From a phage: a stretch of 32,908 nt of DNA. The stretch lies in NCBI GenBank assembly GCA_021421665.1, contig GCA_021421665.1_4698.1. One strand, 5' to 3'. A model generated the notes under the pieces. The model worked only from the letters and a program-made list of their open reading frames with translations. It was not told the DNA's origin and searched no databases. Positions 4,119 to 32,908 of this stretch are shown piece by piece (within the stretch, counting starts at the first letter, position 1; each line of letters begins with the position of its first letter). The position numbers and the translations under genes were made by a program.

Positions 4119-4415
4119 ATGGAAGAAGTGATTCAAGCTAAACATGTAGGTATCATCTTTCGTGATCTAGAGCAGCGTAAAGTTGCAGGTCATACCCGTT
4201 TGGCTAAAGAAGATGATACAGCAATCGCTACTGTTGAACAAGCAGATGCCTATCGTGGGCCAGAGTTTACTCAAGGTGAAACTTGTCACCAATTGAGCCT
4301 GTCACTTTGTGACACTATGGCTAGTGTGAATGTGCAAGAAGTTGAAGATGGAGACTGTGTTAGCTACGTCTACCCTCTGGACACTGTTGCACGTATTAAA
4401 GTAATTCATAAATAA
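4119..4415 (+). CDS. hypothetical protein (98 aa)
   Basis: AAGGAG at 4108-4113 is 5 nt before ATG 4119 (ATG 4116 is also in frame); stop abuts the next promoter. Confidence 0.55.
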   Translation: MEEVIQAKHVGIIFRDLEQRKVAGHTRLAKEDDTAIATVEQADAYRGPEFTQGETCHQLSLSLCDTMASVNVQEVEDGDCVSYVYPLDTVARIKVIHK

Positions 4416-4436
4416 TTACTGGACACTATAGAACAA
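4414..4436 (+). promoter_or_regulatory. SP6-type phage RNAP promoter AATTACTGGACACTATAGAACAA
   Basis: Core GGACACTATAGAA conserved; predicted +1 G at 4431; intergenic. Confidence 0.75.
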
Positions 4437-4506
4437 TAGGACGTGGGTTTGTCAGAGACAGTAAATCCAAGGTGCTCAGTGAGCGTAAAGCCTAAGCACG
4501 TCCTAT
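4436..4506 (+). promoter_or_regulatory. large stem-loop at the 5' end of the transcript (RNase III-site-like)
   Basis: ataggacgtg (4436-4445) is a perfect 10-bp complement of cacgtcctat (4497-4506), enclosing 51 nt with sub-hairpins; further hairpins at 4531-4547 and 4551-4565; 188-nt untranslated leader before ATG 4625. Confidence 0.4.
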
Positions 4507-4624
4507 GATTGTAAAGTGTTTAACCGCCTTTTGTGCATCTTGCACAACCCGAATCAATCGGGCTTTCTAGTGAGTACATGCTTGTGCTCAGTACAAAGCT
4601 AACTGACAATAGGAGACTAAATAA

Positions 4625-14107: not shown

Positions 14108-15307
14108 ATGTCTACACCGAATACTCTAACTAACGTTGCTGTATCCGCATCCGGTGAGGTTGACAGCCTTCTTATTGAGAAGTTTAACGGCAAGGTTAAT
14201 GAGCAGTACATGAAAGGCGAGAACATTCTTTCCTATTTTGATGTACAGACTGTAACTGGTACAAACACGGTTAGCAATAAATACTTAGGTGAGACTGAAT
14301 TGCAGGTGTTAGCACCGGGTCAGTCTCCTAGTGCTACACCAACTCAGGCAGATAAAAACCAGTTGGTGATTGATACTACGGTTATTGCCCGTAACACTGT
14401 AGCTCATATCCATGATGTGCAGGGTGACATTGATAGCCTGAAACCTAAGCTGGCTATGAACCAAGCCAAACAACTGAAGCGACTGGAAGACCAGATGGCA
14501 ATCCAGCAGATGCTGTTAGGCGGTATCGCTAATACCAAAGCCACACGCACTAAGCCGCGTGTTAAAGGTCACGGTTTCTCTATCAACGTTAACATCACCG
14601 AGAGTGAAGCACTTTCTAACCCTCAGTATGTTATGGCAGCAGTGGAGTACGCTCTGGAACAACAGCTTGAGCAGGAAGTAGATATCTCTGATGTGGCTAT
14701 CCTGATGCCGTGGAAGTTCTTCAATGCGCTGCGTGATGCAGACCGTATTGTAGATAAGACTTACACCATTAGTCAGTCAGGCAGCACGGTACAAGGGTTT
14801 GTATTGTCTTCTTACAATTGCCCTGTTATCCCGTCTAACCGTTTCCCTTCTTTTGCAGGGAGTGCACCTCACCACCTGTTATCTAACGCAGATAACGGGT
14901 ATCGCTATGACCCGACAGCAGAAATGAATGGTGCAGTTGCTGTACTGTTTACAGCGGATGCACTGTTGGTTGGTCGCACCATTGATGTAACTGGTGATAT
15001 CTTCTATGAGAAGAAAGAGAAGACTTACTACATCGATACCTTTATGGCAGAAGGTGCGATCCCTGACCGCTGGGAGGCTGTGTCTGTGGTTACAACCAAA
15101 CGCAACGCCAGTGGTGTTGCTGAAGGTGCAGGCACTGACCACGCTATTGTCCTGTCTCGTGCACAGCGTAAGGCGGTTTATGTCAAGAGCGCTAACCCGG
15201 CAGGTGCTTACGCTGCCTCTAGCCTGCAAGCGGAAGACTTGGTTGCTGCTGTACGTGCTGTAATGGCAAATGACATTAAGCCGACTGCAATGAAACCTGC
15301 TGAGTAA
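14108..15307 (+). CDS. major capsid protein (T7 gp10-like)
   Basis: 399-aa ORF with AAGGAGA SD, own promoter and a terminator-like hairpin downstream; position after scaffold. Confidence 0.88.
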   Translation: MSTPNTLTNVAVSASGEVDSLLIEKFNGKVNEQYMKGENILSYFDVQTVTGTNTVSNKYLGETELQVLAPGQSPSATPTQADKNQLVIDTTVIARNTVAHIHDVQGDIDSLKPKLAMNQAKQLKRLEDQMAIQQMLLGGIANTKATRTKPRVKGHGFSINVNITESEALSNPQYVMAAVEYALEQQLEQEVDISDVAILMPWKFFNALRDADRIVDKTYTISQSGSTVQGFVLSSYNCPVIPSNRFPSFAGSAPHHLLSNADNGYRYDPTAEMNGAVAVLFTADALLVGRTIDVTGDIFYEKKEKTYYIDTFMAEGAIPDRWEAVSVVTTKRNASGVAEGAGTDHAIVLSRAQRKAVYVKSANPAGAYAASSLQAEDLVAAVRAVMANDIKPTAMKPAE

Positions 15308-15315
15308 TACCTATG

Positions 15316-15348
15316 CCCTATCTACCTTGCGTAGGTAGGGTTCTTTTT
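15316..15348 (+). terminator. terminator-like hairpin (ccctatctac / gtaggtaggg) followed by TTCTTTTT
   Basis: 10-bp stem with one G-U pair, then a T-tract; immediately after the capsid gene, the position T-phi occupies in T7. Confidence 0.6.
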
Positions 15349-25200: not shown

Positions 25201-25430
25201 TGCAATCCCGTTATGAGGCTGGCTTTCAGACTAAGGGTTTGATAGACCAAATACCATTAGTAGGTGTTGGTCAAGATGCATACCGTTTAGCAGATTCTAT
25301 AACTAAGTATGCAGAGGGTGATACAGATGGTGTAGATGTAGCACGTAGAGTTTTACGCTTAGTGCCACTGACTAATGTAATAGGTGTCCAAAACGCATTG
25401 CGTTATGGCTTAGATGAACTGGAGGACTGA
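22245..25430 (+). CDS. large internal virion / core protein (gp16-like)
   Basis: 1061 aa, largest gene of the block; GGAGG SD; Gly/Ala-rich segment suggests a membrane-interacting region; assignment by size and position. Confidence 0.75.
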   Translation: MEQDIKTNWAGYVQSTPEPFSIEAAPVSAPTIRQRNELQEQVLEAKADADILGAVGAAFQNEWLAFGGKRWYDRATADFPPQPDFEIQPDRREALRFKYGTDMMQKIIEGVRSEDELNFRIQNADDDLERNKRIAQAGWVGSVATIGAAVLDPVGWVASIPTGGAAKVGLVGRAVRGAVAAGVSNAAIESVLVQGDMTRDLDDIMVALGSGMAMGGVIGAVARGRATKLSEQGDDRAASVVRSADAGDRYVRAVADDSIGAMRVKGAEVLTEGAFDIPSKGEDLLKTLQREGNAIDMTPRRWAGTMSALGTVVHSSQDASIRGLGARLFESPQGLGMQKASASLMQNTNLNRLKSADMNRFNDGFDLWLKENNINPVAGHTNSHYIQQYNEKVWEAVRIGMDESTPKSIRMAAEGQQTMYREALALRQRSGEAGFEKVKADNKYMPDIFDSMKARSQFAMHDKEDIIELFSRAYQNGARKIPKEAADEIARAQVNRVADATLTGRLSFEKAMSGQTKAEYEAIMRKAGFSDEEIEKMVEALDNKETRDNISNRAKMSLGLDVTQEYNGIRMRDFMNTNVEELTDNYMKEAAGGAALARQGFSTYQAALNAIDLVERNARNAAKDSKASLALDEEIRQMREGIRLIMGKSIDADPQALSTKMMRRGRDITGVLRLGQMGFAQLGELANFMGEFGVAATTLALGKQFRFTSKALRNGDGFFRDKNLAEVERMVGYIGEDNWLTTKGARPDEFGDVTTVRGMMAHFDQSMNSIRRAQTNLSLFRMAQGSLERMTNRQIALSFIDHLEGKKVIPQKKLEELGLTQEFMSSLQKHYDANSKGSGLLGFDTMPYAMGETLANAIRRKSGLIIQRNFIGDEGIWMNKALGKTFAQLKSFSLVSGEKQFGRGIRHDKIGLAKKTAFGFALGSMVYAAKAYVNSIGREDQDEYLEEKLSPKGLAFGAMGMMSTTAVFSLGGDFLGGLGVLPSELVQSRYEAGFQTKGLIDQIPLVGVGQDAYRLADSITKYAEGDTDGVDVARRVLRLVPLTNVIGVQNALRYGLDELED

Positions 25431-26404
25431 TGGGTTATACTTTCACAGAACACACAGCCAACGGTACGCAAGTGACTTATCCTTTTAGGTTTGCTGGTAG
25501 GGATAAGGGTTATCTTCGTGCCTCAGATGTAAGAGTGGATACTCTTCAAGGTGATACTTGGACTAAGGTCACATCTGGCTGGCAACTAACTGGTACAAAC
25601 CAGATTACTTTTGATGTAGCACCAGCAGCAGGTTTGAAGATTCGTATTCGAAGGGAAGTACCAAAAGAGAACCCATATGCAGAGTTTGACCGTGGTGTTA
25701 CCCTTGATATGAAATCTTTGAATGGTTCCTTTATTCATAACCTAGAGGCAACCCAAGAACTTCTAGATGGGTTTTACCCTGAAGGGTACTACATCAAACA
25801 GAATGTATCATGGGGCGGTAATAAGATTACAGACCTAGCAGATGGTACAGCACCAAATGATGCAGTGAATAAAGGGCAGCTTGACTCCATTGATAAGAAA
25901 CACACAGACTGGAATAAGACGCAAGATGAGCAGATTGATGGTATCATTCGTAGCTTCGTCAGCAACGTATCCCACCGTTCTTTACCTTGGACCTATTCAG
26001 CAGTAGGTGGTGAAGATAAGGTAAAACCTCCTTTCTTCTTCCAAGCAGCACTAGTGTGGCGCGACGGTGTATATCAGGATGAGCAAGCTGGTGCTTTTGA
26101 AATCAGAGATAATACTATATTTCTAGCTAAGCCTTTGCTTAGAAAAGGTGAGCGCGTGTCTGTTCTCCTTGGCTCTCGTGTAGCAGTACCAGACAAAGGT
26201 GAGGTTCTCCAGCTTGAGTTCAACACAGTGGCAGGCTATACGGAGATAAATCTAGGTATGCGTGTATCAGAGGTGTCTGTCTTTCTTGATGGGCTTCTCC
26301 AATCTCTAGGCTCTTATAAGCTTATAGATGACAATAAGTTGGTATTTAGTGAGCCACTACCAGATTGCACCGTACTGGTTCAAGTTAAATCTGATACAAA
26401 GTAG
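25430..26404 (+). CDS. tail fiber/tailspike adaptor protein (T7 gp17 N-terminal-domain-like)
   Basis: 324 aa; N-terminus TANGTQVTYPFRFAGRDKGYLRASDVRV resembles the T7 gp17 N-terminal virion-attachment region; no long receptor-binding domain. Confidence 0.7.
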   Translation: MGYTFTEHTANGTQVTYPFRFAGRDKGYLRASDVRVDTLQGDTWTKVTSGWQLTGTNQITFDVAPAAGLKIRIRREVPKENPYAEFDRGVTLDMKSLNGSFIHNLEATQELLDGFYPEGYYIKQNVSWGGNKITDLADGTAPNDAVNKGQLDSIDKKHTDWNKTQDEQIDGIIRSFVSNVSHRSLPWTYSAVGGEDKVKPPFFFQAALVWRDGVYQDEQAGAFEIRDNTIFLAKPLLRKGERVSVLLGSRVAVPDKGEVLQLEFNTVAGYTEINLGMRVSEVSVFLDGLLQSLGSYKLIDDNKLVFSEPLPDCTVLVQVKSDTK

Positions 26405-26610: not shown

Positions 26611-26896
26611 ACATGCAGCTACAGAGGATGAGGTTGGCATTCTGCATGGTGCTATTACCAAAATCTTCAATAAGAAAGCACAGGCTATACTGGACACTAT
26701 AGAAGAAGACCCAGATGCAGCACTGCATTTAGTGTCTGGTAAAGACATTGGTGCTATGTGCAAATGGGTTCTTGATAATGGTATTACCGCTACACCTGCT
26801 GCACAGCAGGAAGAGTCCAAGTTGTCTAAGCGCCTCAAGGCTATCCGAGAGGCATCTAGTGGTAAGATTATTCAGTTTACAAAAGAGGACAATTAA
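26594..26896 (+). CDS. terminase small subunit (gp18-like)
   Basis: 100 aa, GTG start after GGAGGGAG, immediately upstream of the large terminase; positional assignment. Confidence 0.65.
   Translation: MSVHNKHAATEDEVGILHGAITKIFNKKAQAILDTIEEDPDAALHLVSGKDIGAMCKWVLDNGITATPAAQQEESKLSKRLKAIREASSGKIIQFTKEDN
26685..26707 (+). promoter_or_regulatory. intragenic SP6-promoter-like sequence CTATACTGGACACTATAGAAGAA
   Basis: Core CTGGACACTATAGAAGA is intact but the two upstream positions differ from all intergenic copies; lies inside the small terminase coding sequence. Confidence 0.35.
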
Positions 26897-28794
26897 TGGC
26901 TAAGGCAAGAGAATCACAAGCGGAGGCTCTTGCCAGATGGGAGATGCTACAGGAGTTACAGCAGACCTTTCCTTACACAGCGGAAGGTTTGCTTCTCTTT
27001 GCAGATACAGTTATTCATAATCTGATTGCAGGCAACCCTCATCTGATTCGTATGCAGGCCGATATCTTAAAGTTCCTATTCTATGGGCACAAGTATCGAC
27101 TCATCGAAGCGCCTCGTGGTATCGCTAAGACAACACTCTCAGCAATCTATACAGTCTTCCGTATCATCCATGAACCACATAAGCGTATCATGGTTGTATC
27201 CCAAAATGCCAAGCGAGCAGAGGAAATCGCCGGTTGGGTAGTTAAAATATTCCGTGGCCTAGACTTCCTTGAGTTTATGCTACCTGACATATACGCTGGA
27301 GATCGTGCATCCGTCAAAGCCTTTGAGATTCACTACACGTTACGCGGCAGTGATAAGTCGCCTTCTGTGTCCTGTTATTCTATTGAAGCAGGTATGCAGG
27401 GTGCTCGTGCGGATATTATCCTAGCAGATGACGTAGAGTCTATGCAGAATGCTCGTACAGCAGCAGGTCGAGCCTTACTTGAGGAATTAACCAAGGAGTT
27501 TGAATCTATCAACCAGTTTGGTGATATCATTTATCTTGGTACACCTCAGAACGTAAACTCTATCTACAACAACCTACCTGCTCGCGGCTACTCTGTTCGC
27601 ATCTGGACTGCACGTTACCCTTCGGTGGAGCAAGAGCAATGCTATAGTGACTTCCTTGCACCTATGATTGTGCAGGATATGAAGGACAACCCAGCACTTC
27701 GCTCAGGTTATGGCTTGGATGGCAACAGTGGTGCACCTTGTGCCCCTGAAATGTACGATGATGACGTCCTGATTGAGAAGGAAATATCGCAAGGTGCTGC
27801 TAAGTTCCAGCTCCAATTCATGCTTAACACTCGCATGATGGATGCAGACCGCTATCCTCTACGTCTGAATAACCTCATCTTCACCTCATTTGGCACAGAG
27901 GAAGTCCCTGTGATGCCTACATGGAGTAATGACTCTATTAACATCATTGGAGATGCACCTAAGTATGGCAATAAACCTACAGACTTCATGTATCGACCTG
28001 TTGCCAGACCATATGAATGGGGTGCTGTTACCCGTAAGATTATGTATATCGACCCGGCGGGTGGCGGTAAGAATGGGGACGAAACGGGTGTAGCGATTGT
28101 CTTCCTGCATGGCACATTCATTTACGTGTATCAGTGCTTCGGAGTACCGGGCGGATACCGTGAATCGTCTCTGAATCGCATTGTGCAGGCCGCAAAGCAG
28201 GCGGGTGTTAAAGAGGTATTCATTGAGAAAAACTTTGGTCATGGCGCGTTTGAGGCGGTAATTAAGCCATACTTTGAACGTGAGTGGCCCGTTACACTGG
28301 AAGAGGATTACGCTACCGGACAGAAAGAGTTGCGTATCATTGAGACGCTAGAGCCGCTCATGGCGGCGCACAGGCTCATCTTCAACGCTGAGATGGTCAA
28401 GTCTGACCTTGAGTCAGTACAGCACTATCCGCTTGAACTACGCATGTCCTATAGCCTTTTCAATCAAATGTCGAACATCACGATTGAGAAGAACAGCCTC
28501 CGGCACGATGACCGCTTAGACGCTCTGTACGGCGCTATACGGCAATTAACTTCTCAGATAGACTATGACGAGGTTACACGGATTAATCGCCTCAGAGCGC
28601 AGGAGATGCGCGATTATATCCAAGCTATGAATACACCTCACCTCCGCAGGGCAATGCTCTATGGAGATTATGGGACTGAGCGAAGAGTGACCAACACTTC
28701 TGTAGCGATGCAGCAGCGGGTTTATGGTCAGAACTACCGGAATAAGTCTTCCAATAGAAATACCATTTCTGCAAGGATTTCAAGGACTTATTAA
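26896..28794 (+). CDS. terminase large subunit (gp19-like)
   Basis: 632 aa; Walker A-like EAPRGIAKTT; acidic catalytic stretch ADIILADDVE; position after small terminase. Confidence 0.92.
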   Translation: MAKARESQAEALARWEMLQELQQTFPYTAEGLLLFADTVIHNLIAGNPHLIRMQADILKFLFYGHKYRLIEAPRGIAKTTLSAIYTVFRIIHEPHKRIMVVSQNAKRAEEIAGWVVKIFRGLDFLEFMLPDIYAGDRASVKAFEIHYTLRGSDKSPSVSCYSIEAGMQGARADIILADDVESMQNARTAAGRALLEELTKEFESINQFGDIIYLGTPQNVNSIYNNLPARGYSVRIWTARYPSVEQEQCYSDFLAPMIVQDMKDNPALRSGYGLDGNSGAPCAPEMYDDDVLIEKEISQGAAKFQLQFMLNTRMMDADRYPLRLNNLIFTSFGTEEVPVMPTWSNDSINIIGDAPKYGNKPTDFMYRPVARPYEWGAVTRKIMYIDPAGGGKNGDETGVAIVFLHGTFIYVYQCFGVPGGYRESSLNRIVQAAKQAGVKEVFIEKNFGHGAFEAVIKPYFEREWPVTLEEDYATGQKELRIIETLEPLMAAHRLIFNAEMVKSDLESVQHYPLELRMSYSLFNQMSNITIEKNSLRHDDRLDALYGAIRQLTSQIDYDEVTRINRLRAQEMRDYIQAMNTPHLRRAMLYGDYGTERRVTNTSVAMQQRVYGQNYRNKSSNRNTISARISRTY

Positions 28795-30454: not shown

Positions 30455-30477
30455 ATTTAGGTGACACTATAGAAGAG
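30455..30477 (+). promoter_or_regulatory. canonical SP6 promoter ATTTAGGTGACACTATAGAAGAG upstream of the tailspike genes
   Basis: Exact 23 of 23 identity to the SP6 promoter as used in cloning vectors; predicted +1 G at 30472. Confidence 0.9.
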
Positions 30478-30548
30478 ATAGAGTGGCGATCATTTGGTCG
30501 CCTTTACTCAAGGTGCTCATGGTGGGCGCTTTAAGTAAAGGAGGAAAC

Positions 30549-32444
30549 ATGGCTCTAACTAGACTAACGTCAGCCTTGGTTAGTATCAAGTCTTCCGTGG
30601 TAGGTACTGTCAAGAGAACCATTGCTAACAAGTTTGACCTTGATTTATCTCTGGAGGATTTTGGTGCAGACCCAACTGGCAATACAGACTCTACCGCGGC
30701 TGTTATAGCAGCCCTTAGTAGTCGTAAACGTATAGTCCAAAAAGGTGGAGGTATCTACCGACTGGATGGCGCGGTTGTTGTCCCAACAGGTGATGTCCAT
30801 TTTGAAGGGGCAGGTATAGGCAAGACTGTCTTCAGATTCAACCACTTCACACAAGGTTTCAGACTTGGTGATGAGGCTGACTCAGGTAACAGGTATATTC
30901 ATGTCTTCCGCAAAGCCACTATTGAACGGCCAAACTATGCATCATACACTGGACAGATTAGCCCTAAATCTTTGTATATCTCAAACTCTAGAAACGGATT
31001 GGTAGAAGATATTGATCTGTCAGGTTCTATCGGTTACGGGATACAGTTTGATTATTCAGACACCTACGTAATGGTTCGCAGGTGTTATGTGCATGATCAT
31101 TTCGGTGGTAGCTCCGTGGCGGTTGGTACTGATGGTATCCACTTCTATCGAACAAAAGACTTCTGGGCTATTGAAAATACAGTGGCTCGTGTTGGTGACG
31201 ACGCAATCAGTTGTGGTACTTTTAACTTTGCCTACCCTGTGAGTAATGGTCATATCTTATTTAACAAGATATACAATACACAGGGCACCATCAAGATTTA
31301 CACCAAAGTATCTGGTGTTACAGTCAAGGGTAACTATATTGATGGGTCAGTACAGGGCGGTGTGTATATCACGAACGATGCAAACGCACCAGAAAACGCG
31401 GCTATTAATGACATTACAATAGAAGACAACAAGTTCTACAACATCTTCCCAAACGTGGAAACAAATATAGAGGCTGGACCTTTACGTATCCGCGGTTGGA
31501 AGGGTGGTGCTTGCTCTTTTAACAATATCATTTTCAAGGACAACTACTGCTCAAACACTTACGCTGGAATTAACTTTCTTGTTAACTCTGCCAACCAACG
31601 ACTCAGAAACCTCTATGTAGAGGGGAACATCTTCTTTGTTCAAGCCTTGGGTACAACAAACTCAAGATCTGCAATAATGCTACAGTGCTGTGATGAGAAC
31701 TTAGTTGTTCGCAATAATACCTTCAAAGATACATCTGGTGGTCTCTTGCAGATTGACGCTGTTGGTTCTGGTTTCACTGCAGAACCTTCATCCAATGGTA
31801 GGTTTACCATCACAGGCAACCAAGTGGAAGGATGGAACAAATCAGTAACGGTTGGTCGTAGTGCGCTACGCGGTATCTTCTTACGGCAAAACTTATATGA
31901 CTGCATTGTTGAGATAACCAATAACAAACTTCAATATCAGTACACTAGTGGCTCTGCCGCAAAAGGTCGTGCAGTTGAGACGGCTGGTGTTCACCCTGAT
32001 AGCAGGTTTGAGAACAACGTACTAGATGGTAATGTGTTGTTTAACTCAAACAATGGCGGATACTTTGGTTCAAACAAAACCATAGCTGACCTAACAAGTG
32101 CACCGGGGCCGCGCTCTGGCACACACCAGCGTGGTAGCTCTTTGAGGACAGAAGTACCTACAGCTACAAGGTACAACGAGTATCTGATAGTTAAATCTGG
32201 AACTCTTGATACTATTTCCGCAACAGTAACAATAGACTCTGGTTCATACTCAGGGACTATAACATCTGGCTCATTACTACCCGGTGTATATGTGACAGTC
32301 GCAGGGTTGTCTGATGTGTTACGTGTATTGCGTGTGGCTGGTAGCTCTGTGTTATTTGACTCAAAGGCATCAGCTACTGTAACAGATGCTGCAACAGTAA
32401 ACTCCAACCCAACATGGTTGGCCCGTTCATTAGTACCAGCATAG
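30549..32444 (+). CDS. tailspike protein 1 (631 aa), probable beta-helix capsule depolymerase
   Basis: AAAGGAGG SD before ATG 30549 (ORF-track start 30483 has none); N-terminal DFGADPTGNTD motif typical of pectate-lyase-fold tailspikes; repetitive Asn/Gly/Thr-rich beta-strand-like sequence. Confidence 0.8.
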   Translation: MALTRLTSALVSIKSSVVGTVKRTIANKFDLDLSLEDFGADPTGNTDSTAAVIAALSSRKRIVQKGGGIYRLDGAVVVPTGDVHFEGAGIGKTVFRFNHFTQGFRLGDEADSGNRYIHVFRKATIERPNYASYTGQISPKSLYISNSRNGLVEDIDLSGSIGYGIQFDYSDTYVMVRRCYVHDHFGGSSVAVGTDGIHFYRTKDFWAIENTVARVGDDAISCGTFNFAYPVSNGHILFNKIYNTQGTIKIYTKVSGVTVKGNYIDGSVQGGVYITNDANAPENAAINDITIEDNKFYNIFPNVETNIEAGPLRIRGWKGGACSFNNIIFKDNYCSNTYAGINFLVNSANQRLRNLYVEGNIFFVQALGTTNSRSAIMLQCCDENLVVRNNTFKDTSGGLLQIDAVGSGFTAEPSSNGRFTITGNQVEGWNKSVTVGRSALRGIFLRQNLYDCIVEITNNKLQYQYTSGSAAKGRAVETAGVHPDSRFENNVLDGNVLFNSNNGGYFGSNKTIADLTSAPGPRSGTHQRGSSLRTEVPTATRYNEYLIVKSGTLDTISATVTIDSGSYSGTITSGSLLPGVYVTVAGLSDVLRVLRVAGSSVLFDSKASATVTDAATVNSNPTWLARSLVPA

Positions 32445-32555
32445 AGGTAATATGGAAGAAGATATTGATGTTGAAACTGTATCCTTGCAGGGTTACTTTT
32501 CGGCGCCTATGCCGCCAGAAGTTCCTAAAGAGGGTGCGATGGAAGAGTAATGTAT

Positions 32556-32580
32556 GTGCGGCGTAAGCCGCACTTTACGC
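32556..32580 (+). terminator. hairpin gtgcggc-GTAA-gccgcac followed by T-rich tract
   Basis: Perfect 7-bp GC-rich stem with GNRA-type loop, then TTTACGCGACTTTCTTTCTTC; between the two tailspike genes. Confidence 0.45.
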
Positions 32581-32635
32581 GACTTTCTTTCTTCATAGGC
32601 ACTCATGGTGGGTGTCTATAAACAAAGGAGGTTAC

Positions 32636-32908
32636 ATGGCTTTAACTGAAGCAACAAAGGTAGGCTCACACTTAGCTACTTACGCACCACAAGGTGTGCC
32701 TCGTACAGTTGAAGATAAATTAAAAGACATTGCATCCATTGTTGATTATGGTGCTGTGTCCGGTCAGGATTGTACTGAGGCGCTACAGAATGCCTGCCGA
32801 GAGGCTTGTACTGTAATAATCCCGAAAGGTGAGTTCTTAGTACGAGACTTCATTCTTGATAATGTGAACAATATAAATATCATTGGTATGGGTGGTATTA
32901 TTGTTCAA
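32636..32908 (+). CDS. tailspike protein 2 (3'-partial; runs off the window)
   Basis: AAAGGAGG SD and the same upstream leader module as tailspike 1; starts MALT...; DYGAVSG motif; open to the window end (91 codons, no stop). Confidence 0.7.
   Translation, partial: MALTEATKVGSHLATYAPQGVPRTVEDKLKDIASIVDYGAVSGQDCTEALQNACREACTVIIPKGEFLVRDFILDNVNNINIIGMGGIIVQ

Follow-up and report, generated by a model that had tools for sequence, protein, structure and literature searches.

The closest described counterparts of the locus analysed here are the tail loci of the coliphages K1-5, K1E and K5 and of the Salmonella phage SP6 (Scholl et al. 2001, 2002, 2004; Leiman et al. 2007), for which a cassette design is already known. 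Scholl et al. 2001 reportedly described the tail genes as lying in a 'modular or cassette configuration'. In these loci a late promoter is followed by a conserved leader, the first tailspike gene, an intergenic leader and the second tailspike gene (in K1-5: promoter, leader, gp46, leader, gp47). The intergenic leader is conserved, comprises about 85 nt and contains two dyad symmetries. An adapter, gp37, is combined with two classes of short N-terminal docking peptides, and the exchangeable bodies give different host specificities. The N-terminal peptides of K1-5 gp47 and gp46 are reported to dock on the adapter (Latka 2019, PMC6872550, citing Leiman 2007; PMC5380687), and in K1-5 and SP6 both tailspikes are present on the virion and provide two receptor specificities (PMC6966330, PMC6872550, PMC5380687). 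The virion of the Klebsiella phage Kp7 carries the adaptor and both fibres (bioRxiv 10.1101/2024.05.19.594906; PDB 7Y22, 7Y5S, 7XYC), while the leaders are not discussed in this published work. The docking of an exchangeable depolymerase by a short N-terminal peptide on a T4 gp10-like domain is shared with KP32-, KP34- and G7C-type phages (Latka 2019), an example being the peptide MALxxLV of KP34-like phages (Latka 2019, PMC6872550). These phages follow an anchor-branch arrangement, in which the first receptor-binding protein bears the docking domain, whereas the K1-5-type design has a separate adapter with two sites. A shared leader RNA has not been reported for the KP32-, KP34- and G7C-type phages.

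The DNA analysed (the window, 32,908 nucleotides of a phage) shows the same layout as the K1-5-type loci, with two consecutive tailspike genes downstream of lysis genes, two dyad symmetries in the leader, a gp37 homologue and both peptide classes (Table 1). In its flanks, identity to K1-5-like Vectreviruses amounts to about 89%. Compared to K1-5 and SP6, however, the order of the N-terminal classes is reversed, the gp47-like class preceding the gp46-like class. The leaders of the window lineage also resemble each other much more closely (75% identity over -45..+12, first four codons included) than the K1-5-type pair (52-54%), and both window genes begin with MALT. While the adapter is 65% identical to K1-5 gp37, its docking half reaches only about 40%; a structural counterpart is the 'tail adaptor protein' of PDB 7Y22 (E = 2e-98).

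Table 1. Features of the tailspike locus and the adapter gene in the window.
Feature	Position	Strand	Description
Adapter (gp37-like) gene	25430..26404	+	Pfam Phage_T7_tail N-terminal domain; encoded apart from the tailspikes
SP6-type phage promoter ATTTAGGTGACACTATAGAAGAG	30455..30477	+	Exact match to the SP6 consensus
Leader 1, hairpin 1 (hairpin block GGCGATCATTTGGTCGCC)	30485..30502	+	GC-rich stem of 7 bp, loop of 4 nt (fold); followed by TTTAC
Leader 1, hairpin 2	30501..30541	+	Inverted repeat; fold; covariance model 59.2 bits; covariation
Leader 1, TTTAC	30503..30507		
Leader 1, apex block CTCATGGTGGG	30516..30526		Followed by a 10-nt spacer
Tailspike 1 start, SD AAAGGAGG and ATG	30537..30551	+	SD 30537-30544, then 2 nt to the start block; ATG 30549-30551
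Leader 1, start block ACATGGCTCTAACT	30547..30560		ATG at 30549
Tailspike gene 1	30549..32444	+	631 aa, right-handed beta-helix protein; translation; Pfam Beta_helix E = 2e-12
Small acidic ORF	32452..32550	+	32 aa, MEEDIDVE...; GAGG 5 nt 5' of start; inside variable cassette 1
Leader 2, hairpin 1 (hairpin block GTGCGGCGTAAGCCGCAC)	32556..32573	+	GTGCGGC-GTAA-GCCGCAC (fold); followed by TTTAC
Leader 2, TTTAC	32574..32578		
Leader 2, hairpin 2	32581..32633	+	23 bp, irregular; fold; covariance model 65.6 bits
Leader 2, apex block CTCATGGTGGG	32602..32612		Followed by an 11-nt spacer
Leader 2, SD AAAGGAGG	32624..32631		Followed by 2 nt
Leader 2, start block ACATGGCTTTAACT	32634..32647		ATG at 32636
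Tailspike gene 2 (partial)	32636..32908	+	First 91 codons, window ends inside the gene; translation

The order of the window is also found in Kp7, K1-ULIP33, vB_KvaP_F4M1D and PmP19, with xLT[RK]LxSxLV as the first and MAL[TV][KR][AS]T as the second N-terminal peptide. Klebsiella and Proteus SP6-like phages comprise a leader 2 of the same type (76-94% identity; 28 of 30 GenBank matches are Klebsiella phages) and a related adaptor, but differ from the window in backbone, phage promoter and tailspike bodies; the window backbone instead corresponds to E. coli Vectreviruses (about 89% identity). The C-terminal half of the adapter co-segregates with the type of tailspike locus. Identities of the docking half amounted to 49-92% for loci with the window order versus 36-47% for loci with the K1-5 order, even at a terminase identity of 98-99%.

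Eight phage promoters were detected in the window, all on the + strand, and one of them lies immediately 5' of tailspike gene 1. It is the sole AGGTGACAC variant among the eight, and transcription presumably starts at G30472, according to what is established for SP6 promoters. For tailspike gene 2, promoter scans of the window revealed no promoter of its own. Judged from this arrangement, both tailspike genes would be transcribed from the promoter at 30455-30477 as one message. Hairpins at the 5' end of the transcript were also observed downstream of other promoters in the window.

An earlier note on this DNA had described the same series of blocks in front of both tailspike genes, and all of these blocks were found at the coordinates it claimed. 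The ordered module of about 90 nt occurs twice in the window (30485-30560 and 32556-32647) and nowhere else in it. The composite pattern CTCATGGTGGG-N10/11-AAAGGAGG-NN-ACATGGCTNTAACT gave two exact matches in the window and none in 100 shuffles, and the next-best window match of the covariance model, the reverse strand of the same site, scored 14 bits (compare Table 1). This confirms that the two leader copies are real and beyond chance. The significance results from the ordered combination of the blocks, since the 11-mer CTCATGGTGGG alone, with one mismatch allowed, showed no significance in the window. The distance from TTTAC to CTCATGG is unequal in the copies (8 nt in copy 1 versus 23 nt in copy 2), while the first four codons of the two genes are identical in 11 of 12 nt. 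It had not been recognized that the blocks are the arms and the apex of a conserved mRNA hairpin. Two further points had been missed, namely the SP6 promoter that lies 8 nt before the module start at 30485 and the fact that gene 2 has no promoter.

Both leaders fold into two hairpins (z-scores of -4.1 and -6.1). Hairpin 1 of leader 1 begins 14 nt past the inferred transcription start. Relatives carry a structurally equivalent hairpin 1 with differing stem sequences, and for leader 2 the two sides of the stem covary (CAGTGC/GCACTG, GAGCGGC/GCCGCTC and GCAGCGC/GCGCTGC). Similarity to relatives starts exactly at this hairpin. Since its GC-rich stem is followed by only three U, it was not called by a generic terminator scan, and its interpretation as an ordinary terminator is unsupported. 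Hairpin 1 is probably an RNA-stability element, which resembles a 5' cap in front of gene 1 and takes a 3' or intercistronic position after gene 1.

Hairpin 2 of leader 1 consists of a lower stem (CCTTTACT/AGTAAAGG), an upper stem (AAGGTGCTCA/TGGGCGCTTT) and the loop TGG. In isolation, it folds with -21.6 kcal/mol (z-score -5.2), while -22.9 kcal/mol (z-score -6.0) was determined for leader 2. In both leaders CTCATGGTGGG represents the apex, and the 3' arm runs into the SD. The helix has a length of 18-23 bp and is interrupted by internal mismatches (1x1 or 2x2) at a distance of about 10-11 bp from the loop. Covariation was determined in a MAFFT alignment of 37 unique leaders, which was fitted to no structure. 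In this alignment 88% of the hairpin 2 cells were paired, compared to 41-56% with the partner columns slid, and double-sided changes were observed in 9 of 18 pairs; the pair 24-36 occurs as UA (13), CG (10), AU (9) and GC (5) without a single unpaired cell. Since MAFFT placed the lower stem of the window-type leader 1 one column off register, the pair counts for the lower stem are conservative. A model-guided alignment of 40 sequences left the totals and the result unchanged. These values derive from roughly a dozen different stem variants of related phages and a shuffle control that ignores relatedness, and independent events are modest in number. In 39 of the 40 leaders the sense strand gives a more stable fold than the complementary strand (-20.1 versus -12.5 kcal/mol).

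The covariance model matches tailspike starts only, with one or two matches per genome in 32 sources, which agrees with the expectation of the earlier note that relatives carry the element at their tailspike boundaries. Hairpin 2 was found 5' of every tailspike gene across about 30 relatives, except for the first leader of Kp7, where the model gave no match and the hairpin is absent. Hairpin 2 is therefore not indispensable. A permissive scan with Rfam 15 showed three matches at chance level (E = 2.8 to 9.8), none of which overlaps the hairpins.

The 3' arm of hairpin 2 always ends in or beside the SD, and the spacing between SD and ATG is fixed. In leader 1 the first five SD bases lie within the 3' arm, and the SD zone has a mean unpaired probability of 0.38, which is mid-range among the window genes. 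In leader 2 CTTTCTTT pairs with the entire SD, and the value of 0.14 is the lowest among the credible starts of the window. A uniform sequestration of the SD was thus rejected. Since strong burial is restricted to leader 2, the two copies need not share one translational mechanism.

The N-terminus of tailspike 1 (MALTRLTSALVSIKSS) belongs to the class of K1-5 gp47 and Kp7 gp51 based on the N-terminal alignment, and residues 1-90 align with PDB 7Y5S. Its closest bodies are Klebsiella phage tail fibres with at most 51% identity. Tailspike 2 begins with MALTEATK and aligns with the class of K1-5 gp46 and Kp7 gp52; for the partial protein, a weak pectate-lyase-like Pfam match under the curated cut-off was obtained. 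According to the earlier note the proteins diverge completely after MALT. This is roughly correct, yet MALT opens two different N-terminal peptides, each conserved across relatives, and over the first 40 residues 13 of 40 positions are identical without gaps. MALT is no neutral junction, as these peptides resemble the reported adapter-docking peptides of K1-5, and by this analogy they may dock as well. Neither its DNA nor its protein sequence linked the small ORF between the genes to anything in the phage collection, and the ORF is absent from the relatives, in which tailspike gene 1 ends directly at leader 2.

Within the locus, similarity to relatives is limited to two stretches, one from 30478 to about 30565 and one from about 32552 to 32660. 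With about 30 relatives, an alignment is possible solely for the leaders and the initial 4-8 codons, while the tailspike bodies are unrelated; even the closest backbone (L019) carries different tailspikes. In the single-tailspike relatives (L032, L033, L038) leader 1 extends through AAAGGAGG and continues as leader 2 (TTACATGGCTTTAA), and the gene behind this hybrid leader is a tailspike of the gene 2 class, homologous to Kp7 gp52. Because relatives share the leaders only and single-tailspike relatives carry a hybrid leader, the suggested cassette boundary for swappable receptor-binding genes holds. The mosaic patterns point to recombination at the leaders. Breakpoints were located at the promoter end (30477-30480), in hairpin 1 (30496), at TTTAC (30510), at the SD (30544) and after codons 4-6 (30561-30565). 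They do not cluster in the CTCATGGTGGG block, where the earlier note had suggested looking for them, but range from the promoter as far as codon 6, and the single clean crossover inside the leader occurred in AAAGGAGG. Nor did the proposed stacking of genes extend beyond two, as no relative contained more than two leader-bearing genes; stacking appears to go no further than the adapter's two reported docking sites. The dual capsule specificity that had been proposed is plausible by analogy with K1-5, SP6 and Kp7.

In their behaviour only, and with no sequence relationship, the two copies resemble the PeSL cassettes of T4-type phages (Arbiol et al. 2010, PMC2839356), where short repeated regulatory units (promoter and/or stem-loop) flank variable genes, and recombination between copies shuffles, inserts or deletes these genes. 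PeSLs join a sigma-70 early promoter to a terminator, are numerous and border genes that are non-essential (PMC2839356). In contrast, the unit of the window is present in two copies with a phage-polymerase promoter only in the first, and reaches into the coding sequence of essential virion proteins.

Altogether, it is likely that the module is the standard 5' unit of SP6/K1-5-like tailspike cassettes and combines expression, docking and exchange homology. A single message made from the one promoter would cover both genes, each preceded by a GC-rich hairpin, an irregular hairpin of 18-23 bp ending in the ribosome-binding site, a strong SD whose distance to the ATG is constant and the docking codons. 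Through the N-terminal peptide that these codons open, the tailspike would be anchored at one of the adapter's two reported docking sites. Since the leader unit is the sole sequence common to otherwise unrelated tailspike genes, homologous recombination would take place there, either among phages that infect the same cell or between both copies of a single genome. In this way receptor-binding bodies could be swapped or deleted while expression and attachment to the virion are kept intact. For the hairpins themselves, the function may lie in RNase III processing or in the tuning of translation. On a more tentative level, and with somewhat less than even confidence, hairpin 2 together with hairpin 1 could be a so far undescribed cis-regulatory mRNA element for receptor-binding genes in SP6-like phages of Escherichia, Salmonella, Klebsiella and Proteus. 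Such an element would serve as a natural plug-and-play adaptor for expression, working through RNase III processing or by control of access to the ribosome-binding site. It would pre-set the expression of any newly acquired tailspike gene, provide exchange homology and travel with the matching docking half of the adapter.

Among the specific functions considered for hairpin 2, a processing signal for host RNase III as in the mRNAs of T7 is a possibility that falls short of being probable. A cut at the mismatch between upper and lower stem could leave a protective 3' hairpin upstream and free the downstream SD, and such cleavage could separate the two cistrons and activate the translation of the tailspike. 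The T7 signals are likewise irregular intercistronic hairpins of about 20 bp with mismatches on a phage-polymerase transcript, and in both cases cleavage would be expected to yield a short leader as well as a stability hairpin at the 3' end. There is no sequence relationship, though, and in the window the 3' arm holds the SD and the element is confined to receptor-binding genes. Cellular RNase III substrates are described as helices of about 20 bp or less, in which internal loops lead to single-strand cuts and 3' stability hairpins (PMC3867540). The helix of 18-23 bp with 1x1 or 2x2 mismatches fits this description, as do the position between cistrons of a polycistronic phage RNA, the specificity of the structure for the sense strand and the fully paired SD of leader 2. 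On the other hand, leader 1 lies at the 5' end of the transcript, where no cistrons need to be separated, and neither Rfam nor other models of such sites gave a match. A literature search on RNase III sites or leader hairpins in SP6 and K1-5 phages, which did not extend to the original K1-5/SP6 papers, yielded nothing relevant.

Slightly less likely is that hairpin 2 stays uncleaved and acts as an insulating, translation-tuning structure, which would keep the ribosome-binding site in a fixed local context. The translation rate of any incoming gene would then be fixed at a modest and similar level, in keeping with the low and equal copy number needed for the tailspikes; six copies per baseplate are reported for each of them (PMC6966330). 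The constant end of the 3' arm in or beside the SD at fixed distance from the ATG, the 75% identity of the window-lineage leaders and the restriction of the element to tailspike genes are in accordance with such a function, whereas the SD accessibilities of 0.38 and 0.14 argue against an equalised output.

It is improbable that the hairpins are terminators or attenuators which determine how much transcript of tailspike 1 is made relative to tailspike 2. In leader 2, hairpin 1 is GC-rich, sits behind cassette 1 and precedes the T-rich TTTACGCGACTTTCTTTCTT, but the short run of three U and the missing call of the generic scan do not fit. Furthermore, termination at hairpin 1 of leader 1, so close behind the promoter, would abolish expression. 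The clear terminator of the window, after the capsid gene, looks different, with a long stem followed by TTCTTTTT, and hairpin 2 leads into SD and ATG instead of a U-run.

Very little speaks for an action in the DNA, where the element would be a palindrome or cruciform, or would be recognized by a site-specific recombinase or nuclease that moves the tailspike cassettes. The location at cassette boundaries, the dyad symmetry and the conserved apex would be compatible with it, yet many G-U pairs correspond to C-A mismatches on the other strand, where the fold is on average 7.6 kcal/mol worse and model scores drop from 49-79 bits (sense) to 13-23 bits. In addition, the breakpoints are scattered over about 90 nt instead of one site, and no recombinase gene was noticed at the locus. 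Least credible of all is that the copies go back to a recent tandem duplication of one tailspike gene with later divergence of the bodies, or that they are a chance likeness of two strong ribosome-binding sites: despite the nearly identical first four codons and the weak similarity over 40 residues, a recent duplication is refuted by the tailspike bodies of the complete relative L019, which show no detectable similarity (E = 0.44), and each body has foreign relatives of its own, while chance is excluded by the covariance-model scores and the shuffles. Since each of the two leader positions is conserved in its own right among phages of Escherichia, Salmonella, Klebsiella and Proteus, any duplication would be ancient.

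As the two-tailspike cassette on an adapter was already established, the finding of the likely standard 5' unit extends this knowledge and overturns nothing. Its meaning lies in the exchange of tailspikes, which decides the capsule and O-antigen types a phage infects, and in the use of SP6/K1-5-like phages as scaffolds for therapeutic and engineered phages. The exchangeable unit reaches from hairpin 1 to about codon 8 and does not begin at the ATG. The insertion of new tailspikes should leave the conserved leader undisturbed, since it is structured as mRNA, and the class of the N-terminal peptide must match the docking half of the adapter.

The earlier note had described the same ordered blocks (GC-rich hairpin, TTTAC, CTCATGGTGGG, SD and MALT start) in front of both tailspike genes (leader 1, 30485-30560; leader 2, 32556-32647), and every one of them was recovered at these positions. 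The composite pattern occurred twice in the window and in 0 of 100 shuffles, while the 11-mer on its own was not significant. Over the core blocks, the two copies showed an aligned identity of 81-88%. In the window's lineage, leader 1 and leader 2 are 75% identical, compared to 52-54% in the K1-5 and SP6 types; judged from sequence comparison, this high likeness suggests that the two positions were homogenised or exchanged sequence more recently.

Since each leader folds as RNA into two hairpins (fold z-scores of -4.1 and -6.1), the blocks are not independent motifs. In hairpin 2, RNA folding gave an upper stem of 10-11 bp that ends in a TGG loop, with CTCATGGTGGG at the apex, and a lower stem whose 3' arm extends into AAAGGAGG. 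In leader 1 the lower pairing joins CCTTTACT with AGTAAAGG, which explains why TTTAC and the SD-proximal bases appear as conserved blocks, and in leader 2 the whole SD is paired with a CTTTCTTT tract. Both leaders of K1-5 fold like those of the window, with largely different sequences.

Coordinates of features in the window
Feature	Position	Strand	Remarks
SP6-consensus promoter ATTTAGGTGACACTATAGAAGAG	30455-30477	+	perfect match; 8 nt upstream of the leader start in the earlier note
Other phage promoters	3646, 4414, 5692, 14035, 26685, 28793, 8831	+	promoter scan
Hairpin 1	30485-30502; 32556-32573		GC-rich hairpin of the earlier note; TTTAC is its 3' tail
Hairpin 2	30501-30541; 32581-32633		long irregular helix
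Tailspike 1	ATG 30549	+	631 aa; translation; Pfam Beta_helix
Tailspike 2	ATG 32636	+	translation; gene interrupted by the window end
Acidic ORF MEEDIDVETVSLQGYFSAPMPPEVPKEGAMEE	32452-32550		32 codons; GAGG 5 nt upstream; occupies the gap from the tailspike 1 stop to leader 2
Adapter (gp37-like) gene	25430-26404	+	mosaic
Terminator-like hairpin CCCTATCTACC...GGTAGGG, then TTCTTTTT	~15310-15345		clear; 3' of the presumed major capsid gene 14108-15307

Conservation of the structure was determined in 27 related loci fetched via the terminase gene and in further GenBank records, in which every tailspike gene was catalogued. In a MAFFT alignment of 37 unique leaders, which was anchored by sequence only, 88% of the cells were paired, compared to 41-56% with the partner columns slid. 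Double-sided changes were observed in 9 of the 18 pairs, and several upper-stem pairs showed three or four Watson-Crick types with zero unpaired cells; the count of independent substitutions behind this is modest, given that the phages are related and the variants group into about a dozen stem types. A model-guided alignment of 40 sequences led to the same outcome, and the structure of hairpin 1 was also kept in relatives despite differing stem sequences. The sense strand was more stable than its complement in 39 of 40 leaders (-20.1 vs -12.5 kcal/mol), because many of the pairs are G-U. This favours an mRNA element over a DNA palindrome. A covariance model made from the leader alignment found exactly two sites in the window (65.6 and 59.2 bits; next match 14 bits), and across 32 sources it matched only at tailspike starts, with one or two sites per genome. 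No matching family for the leader hairpins was found in Rfam.

A further strongly structured segment (4431-4510, -23.6 kcal/mol) lies immediately 3' of the promoter at 4414; it has no evident gene start and no covariance-model match. Its 11-mer CAAGGTGCTCA (4468) has a single other occurrence, at 30509 in hairpin 2 of leader 1.

Hairpin 1 probably stabilises RNA ends; 5' hairpins of a similar kind are also present behind other promoters of the window. As a terminator it was not convincing in the terminator scan. Hairpin 2 may be an RNase III processing signal, and its size and mismatches match the account of RNase III substrates given in PMC3867540. Alternatively, it may tune and insulate translation initiation. 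The burial of the SD is strong only in leader 2 (unpaired probability of 0.14, compared to 0.38 in leader 1), and the first leader of Kp7 is without hairpin 2.

Upstream of the tailspike locus, the backbone shares about 89% identity with K1-5-like coliphages (genus Vectrevirus). Eight SP6-type phage promoters were found in the window, all on the + strand; for the one ahead of tailspike 1, we take G30472 to be the transcription start, as expected for SP6 promoters. Since the promoter scans of the window revealed neither a phage promoter nor a convincing sigma-70 promoter upstream of tailspike 2, both tailspikes are most likely co-transcribed. The SP6 variant AGGTGACACTATAG occurs in the window only at the tailspike promoter, while six of the others carry the K1-5 variant ACTGGACACTATAG and one carries AGTTGACAC. 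In the related locus L019, the K1-5 variant precedes a leader of the window's type, so promoter variant and leader type are separable, and the tailspike promoter seems to be a point of exchange as well. A longer ORF for tailspike 1 (from GTG 30483 or ATG 30519) was rejected as an artefact, because the SD-ATG and the N-terminus conserved in relatives set the start at 30549. The acidic ORF ahead of leader 2 was not present in the relatives, and nothing in the phage collection matched it at the DNA or protein level. A TTG start at 15347 was a false gene call prompted by the terminator-like hairpin before it.

In K1-5, docking to the adapter gp37 is reported to use MAKLTKP in gp46 and, at a second site, MIQRLGSSLVK in gp47 (Latka et al. 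2019, PMC6872550, after Leiman et al. 2007); docking by N-terminal peptides in K1-5 is also supported by PMC5380687. Tailspike 1 falls into the gp47 class by its N-terminus, MALTRLTSALVSIKSS...SLEDFGA, with identities over 40 residues of 41% to K1-5 gp47 and 45% to Kp7 gp51. Within this class, L6 and L10 are invariant in 11 sequences, and PDB 7Y5S could also be aligned. Tailspike 2, which starts with MALTEATK, is a member of the gp46 class, M-[AS]-(x)-L-[TVI]-[KRE]. The class order is therefore reversed compared to K1-5, K1E and SP6. The same reversed order was observed in four related loci (L002, L013, L019, L023) and in the Klebsiella and Proteus SP6-like phages Kp7, K1-ULIP33, F4M1D and PmP19. 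Kp7 has been characterised, with a tail adaptor, both fibres in the virion and K2 capsule degradation by the second gene product (bioRxiv 10.1101/2024.05.19.594906).

The adapter gene separates into two parts. Residues 1-165 share 85-87% identity with most Vectreviruses of the K1-5 order. For residues 166-324, the docking half, identity is only 36-47% against every locus of that order, including those with a 98-99% identical terminase, but reaches 49-92% against every locus of the window's order, regardless of backbone. This contrast implies a putative recombination junction near 25925 and a docking half that would be co-inherited with the tailspike locus over a distance of 4 kb. The N-terminal peptides are probably docking peptides matched to the adapter, for which this co-segregation is the strongest, if indirect, evidence.

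The two proteins had been said to diverge completely after MALT. This holds true for the bodies, which are unrelated within one genome in pairwise comparison and thereby exclude a recent duplication of one tailspike gene. It does not hold for the first 40 residues (30549-30668 vs 32636-32755), which share 13/40 ungapped identities (MALT, V.RT, K, S..D.GA; E = 0.005, single comparison), so the N-terminal modules may be distant paralogues rather than unrelated.

Similarity to all relatives is limited to the promoter-leader region up to ~30565 and to ~32552-32660. The tailspike bodies had no match in the fetched relative loci, and the closest proteins to the body of tailspike 1 were Klebsiella phage fibres with at most 51% identity, one of them from a jumbo myovirus. 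Depending on the relative, the left similarity ended at 30477-30480, 30496, 30510, 30544 or 30561-30565, while similarity in leader 2 started exactly at hairpin 1 and ended at codon 4-8. The breakpoints are therefore spread over the module and not focused on CTCATGGTGGG. In three single-tailspike relatives (L032, L033, L038), the leader is a hybrid, identical to leader 1 through AAAGGAGG and to leader 2 from there on (TTACATGGCTTTAA...), ahead of a tailspike of the gene-2 class with homology to Kp7 gp52 and the second gene of L019. This hybrid apparently records a crossover of one leader copy with the other, by deletion or by the reverse insertion. The proposed cassette boundary for swapping or stacking is thus supported by exchange boundaries within the module, but no locus with more than two leader-bearing genes was found among the catalogued relatives.

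First tailspikes truncated to 111 aa (L012, L015, L020, L030) or 112 aa (L039, 4152-4490) keep leader and N-terminal peptide and have lost the enzymatic body, as in K1E and in both gene orders; they show a decaying slot. The large terminase of the window (26896-28794) is uninterrupted. An insertion of ~745 nt lies within this gene in L021, L030, L032, L033, L034, L037 and L038 (match of ~2640 nt vs 1896), and the annotation of K1-ULIP33 (L039, 1118-1651) gives it as a homing endonuclease that separates two terminase fragments.

Altogether, the repeat described in the earlier note was confirmed and its interpretation is supported in part. The locus carries all sequence-testable defining features of the SP6/K1-5 two-tailspike cassette system. 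In 2001, Scholl et al. reportedly used the term 'modular or cassette configuration' for the tail genes of K1-5, K5 and K1E and noted a conserved intergenic region with dyad symmetries. Since the reversed order is already known from sequenced Klebsiella phages, one of them characterised, the locus extends a known system. In the searched literature, four features appear to be undescribed: the covariation that supports the leader hairpin as an element of the mRNA, the exclusive link of this hairpin to receptor-binding genes, the leader-to-leader hybrid, and the co-segregation of the adapter docking half with the locus type. The closest behavioural analogue are the T4-type PeSL cassettes, which recombine at repeated regulatory units. 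In the window's system, a covarying sense-strand structure limited to tailspike starts occurs together with a single promoter, adapter-matched N-terminal classes and exchange boundaries within the module.
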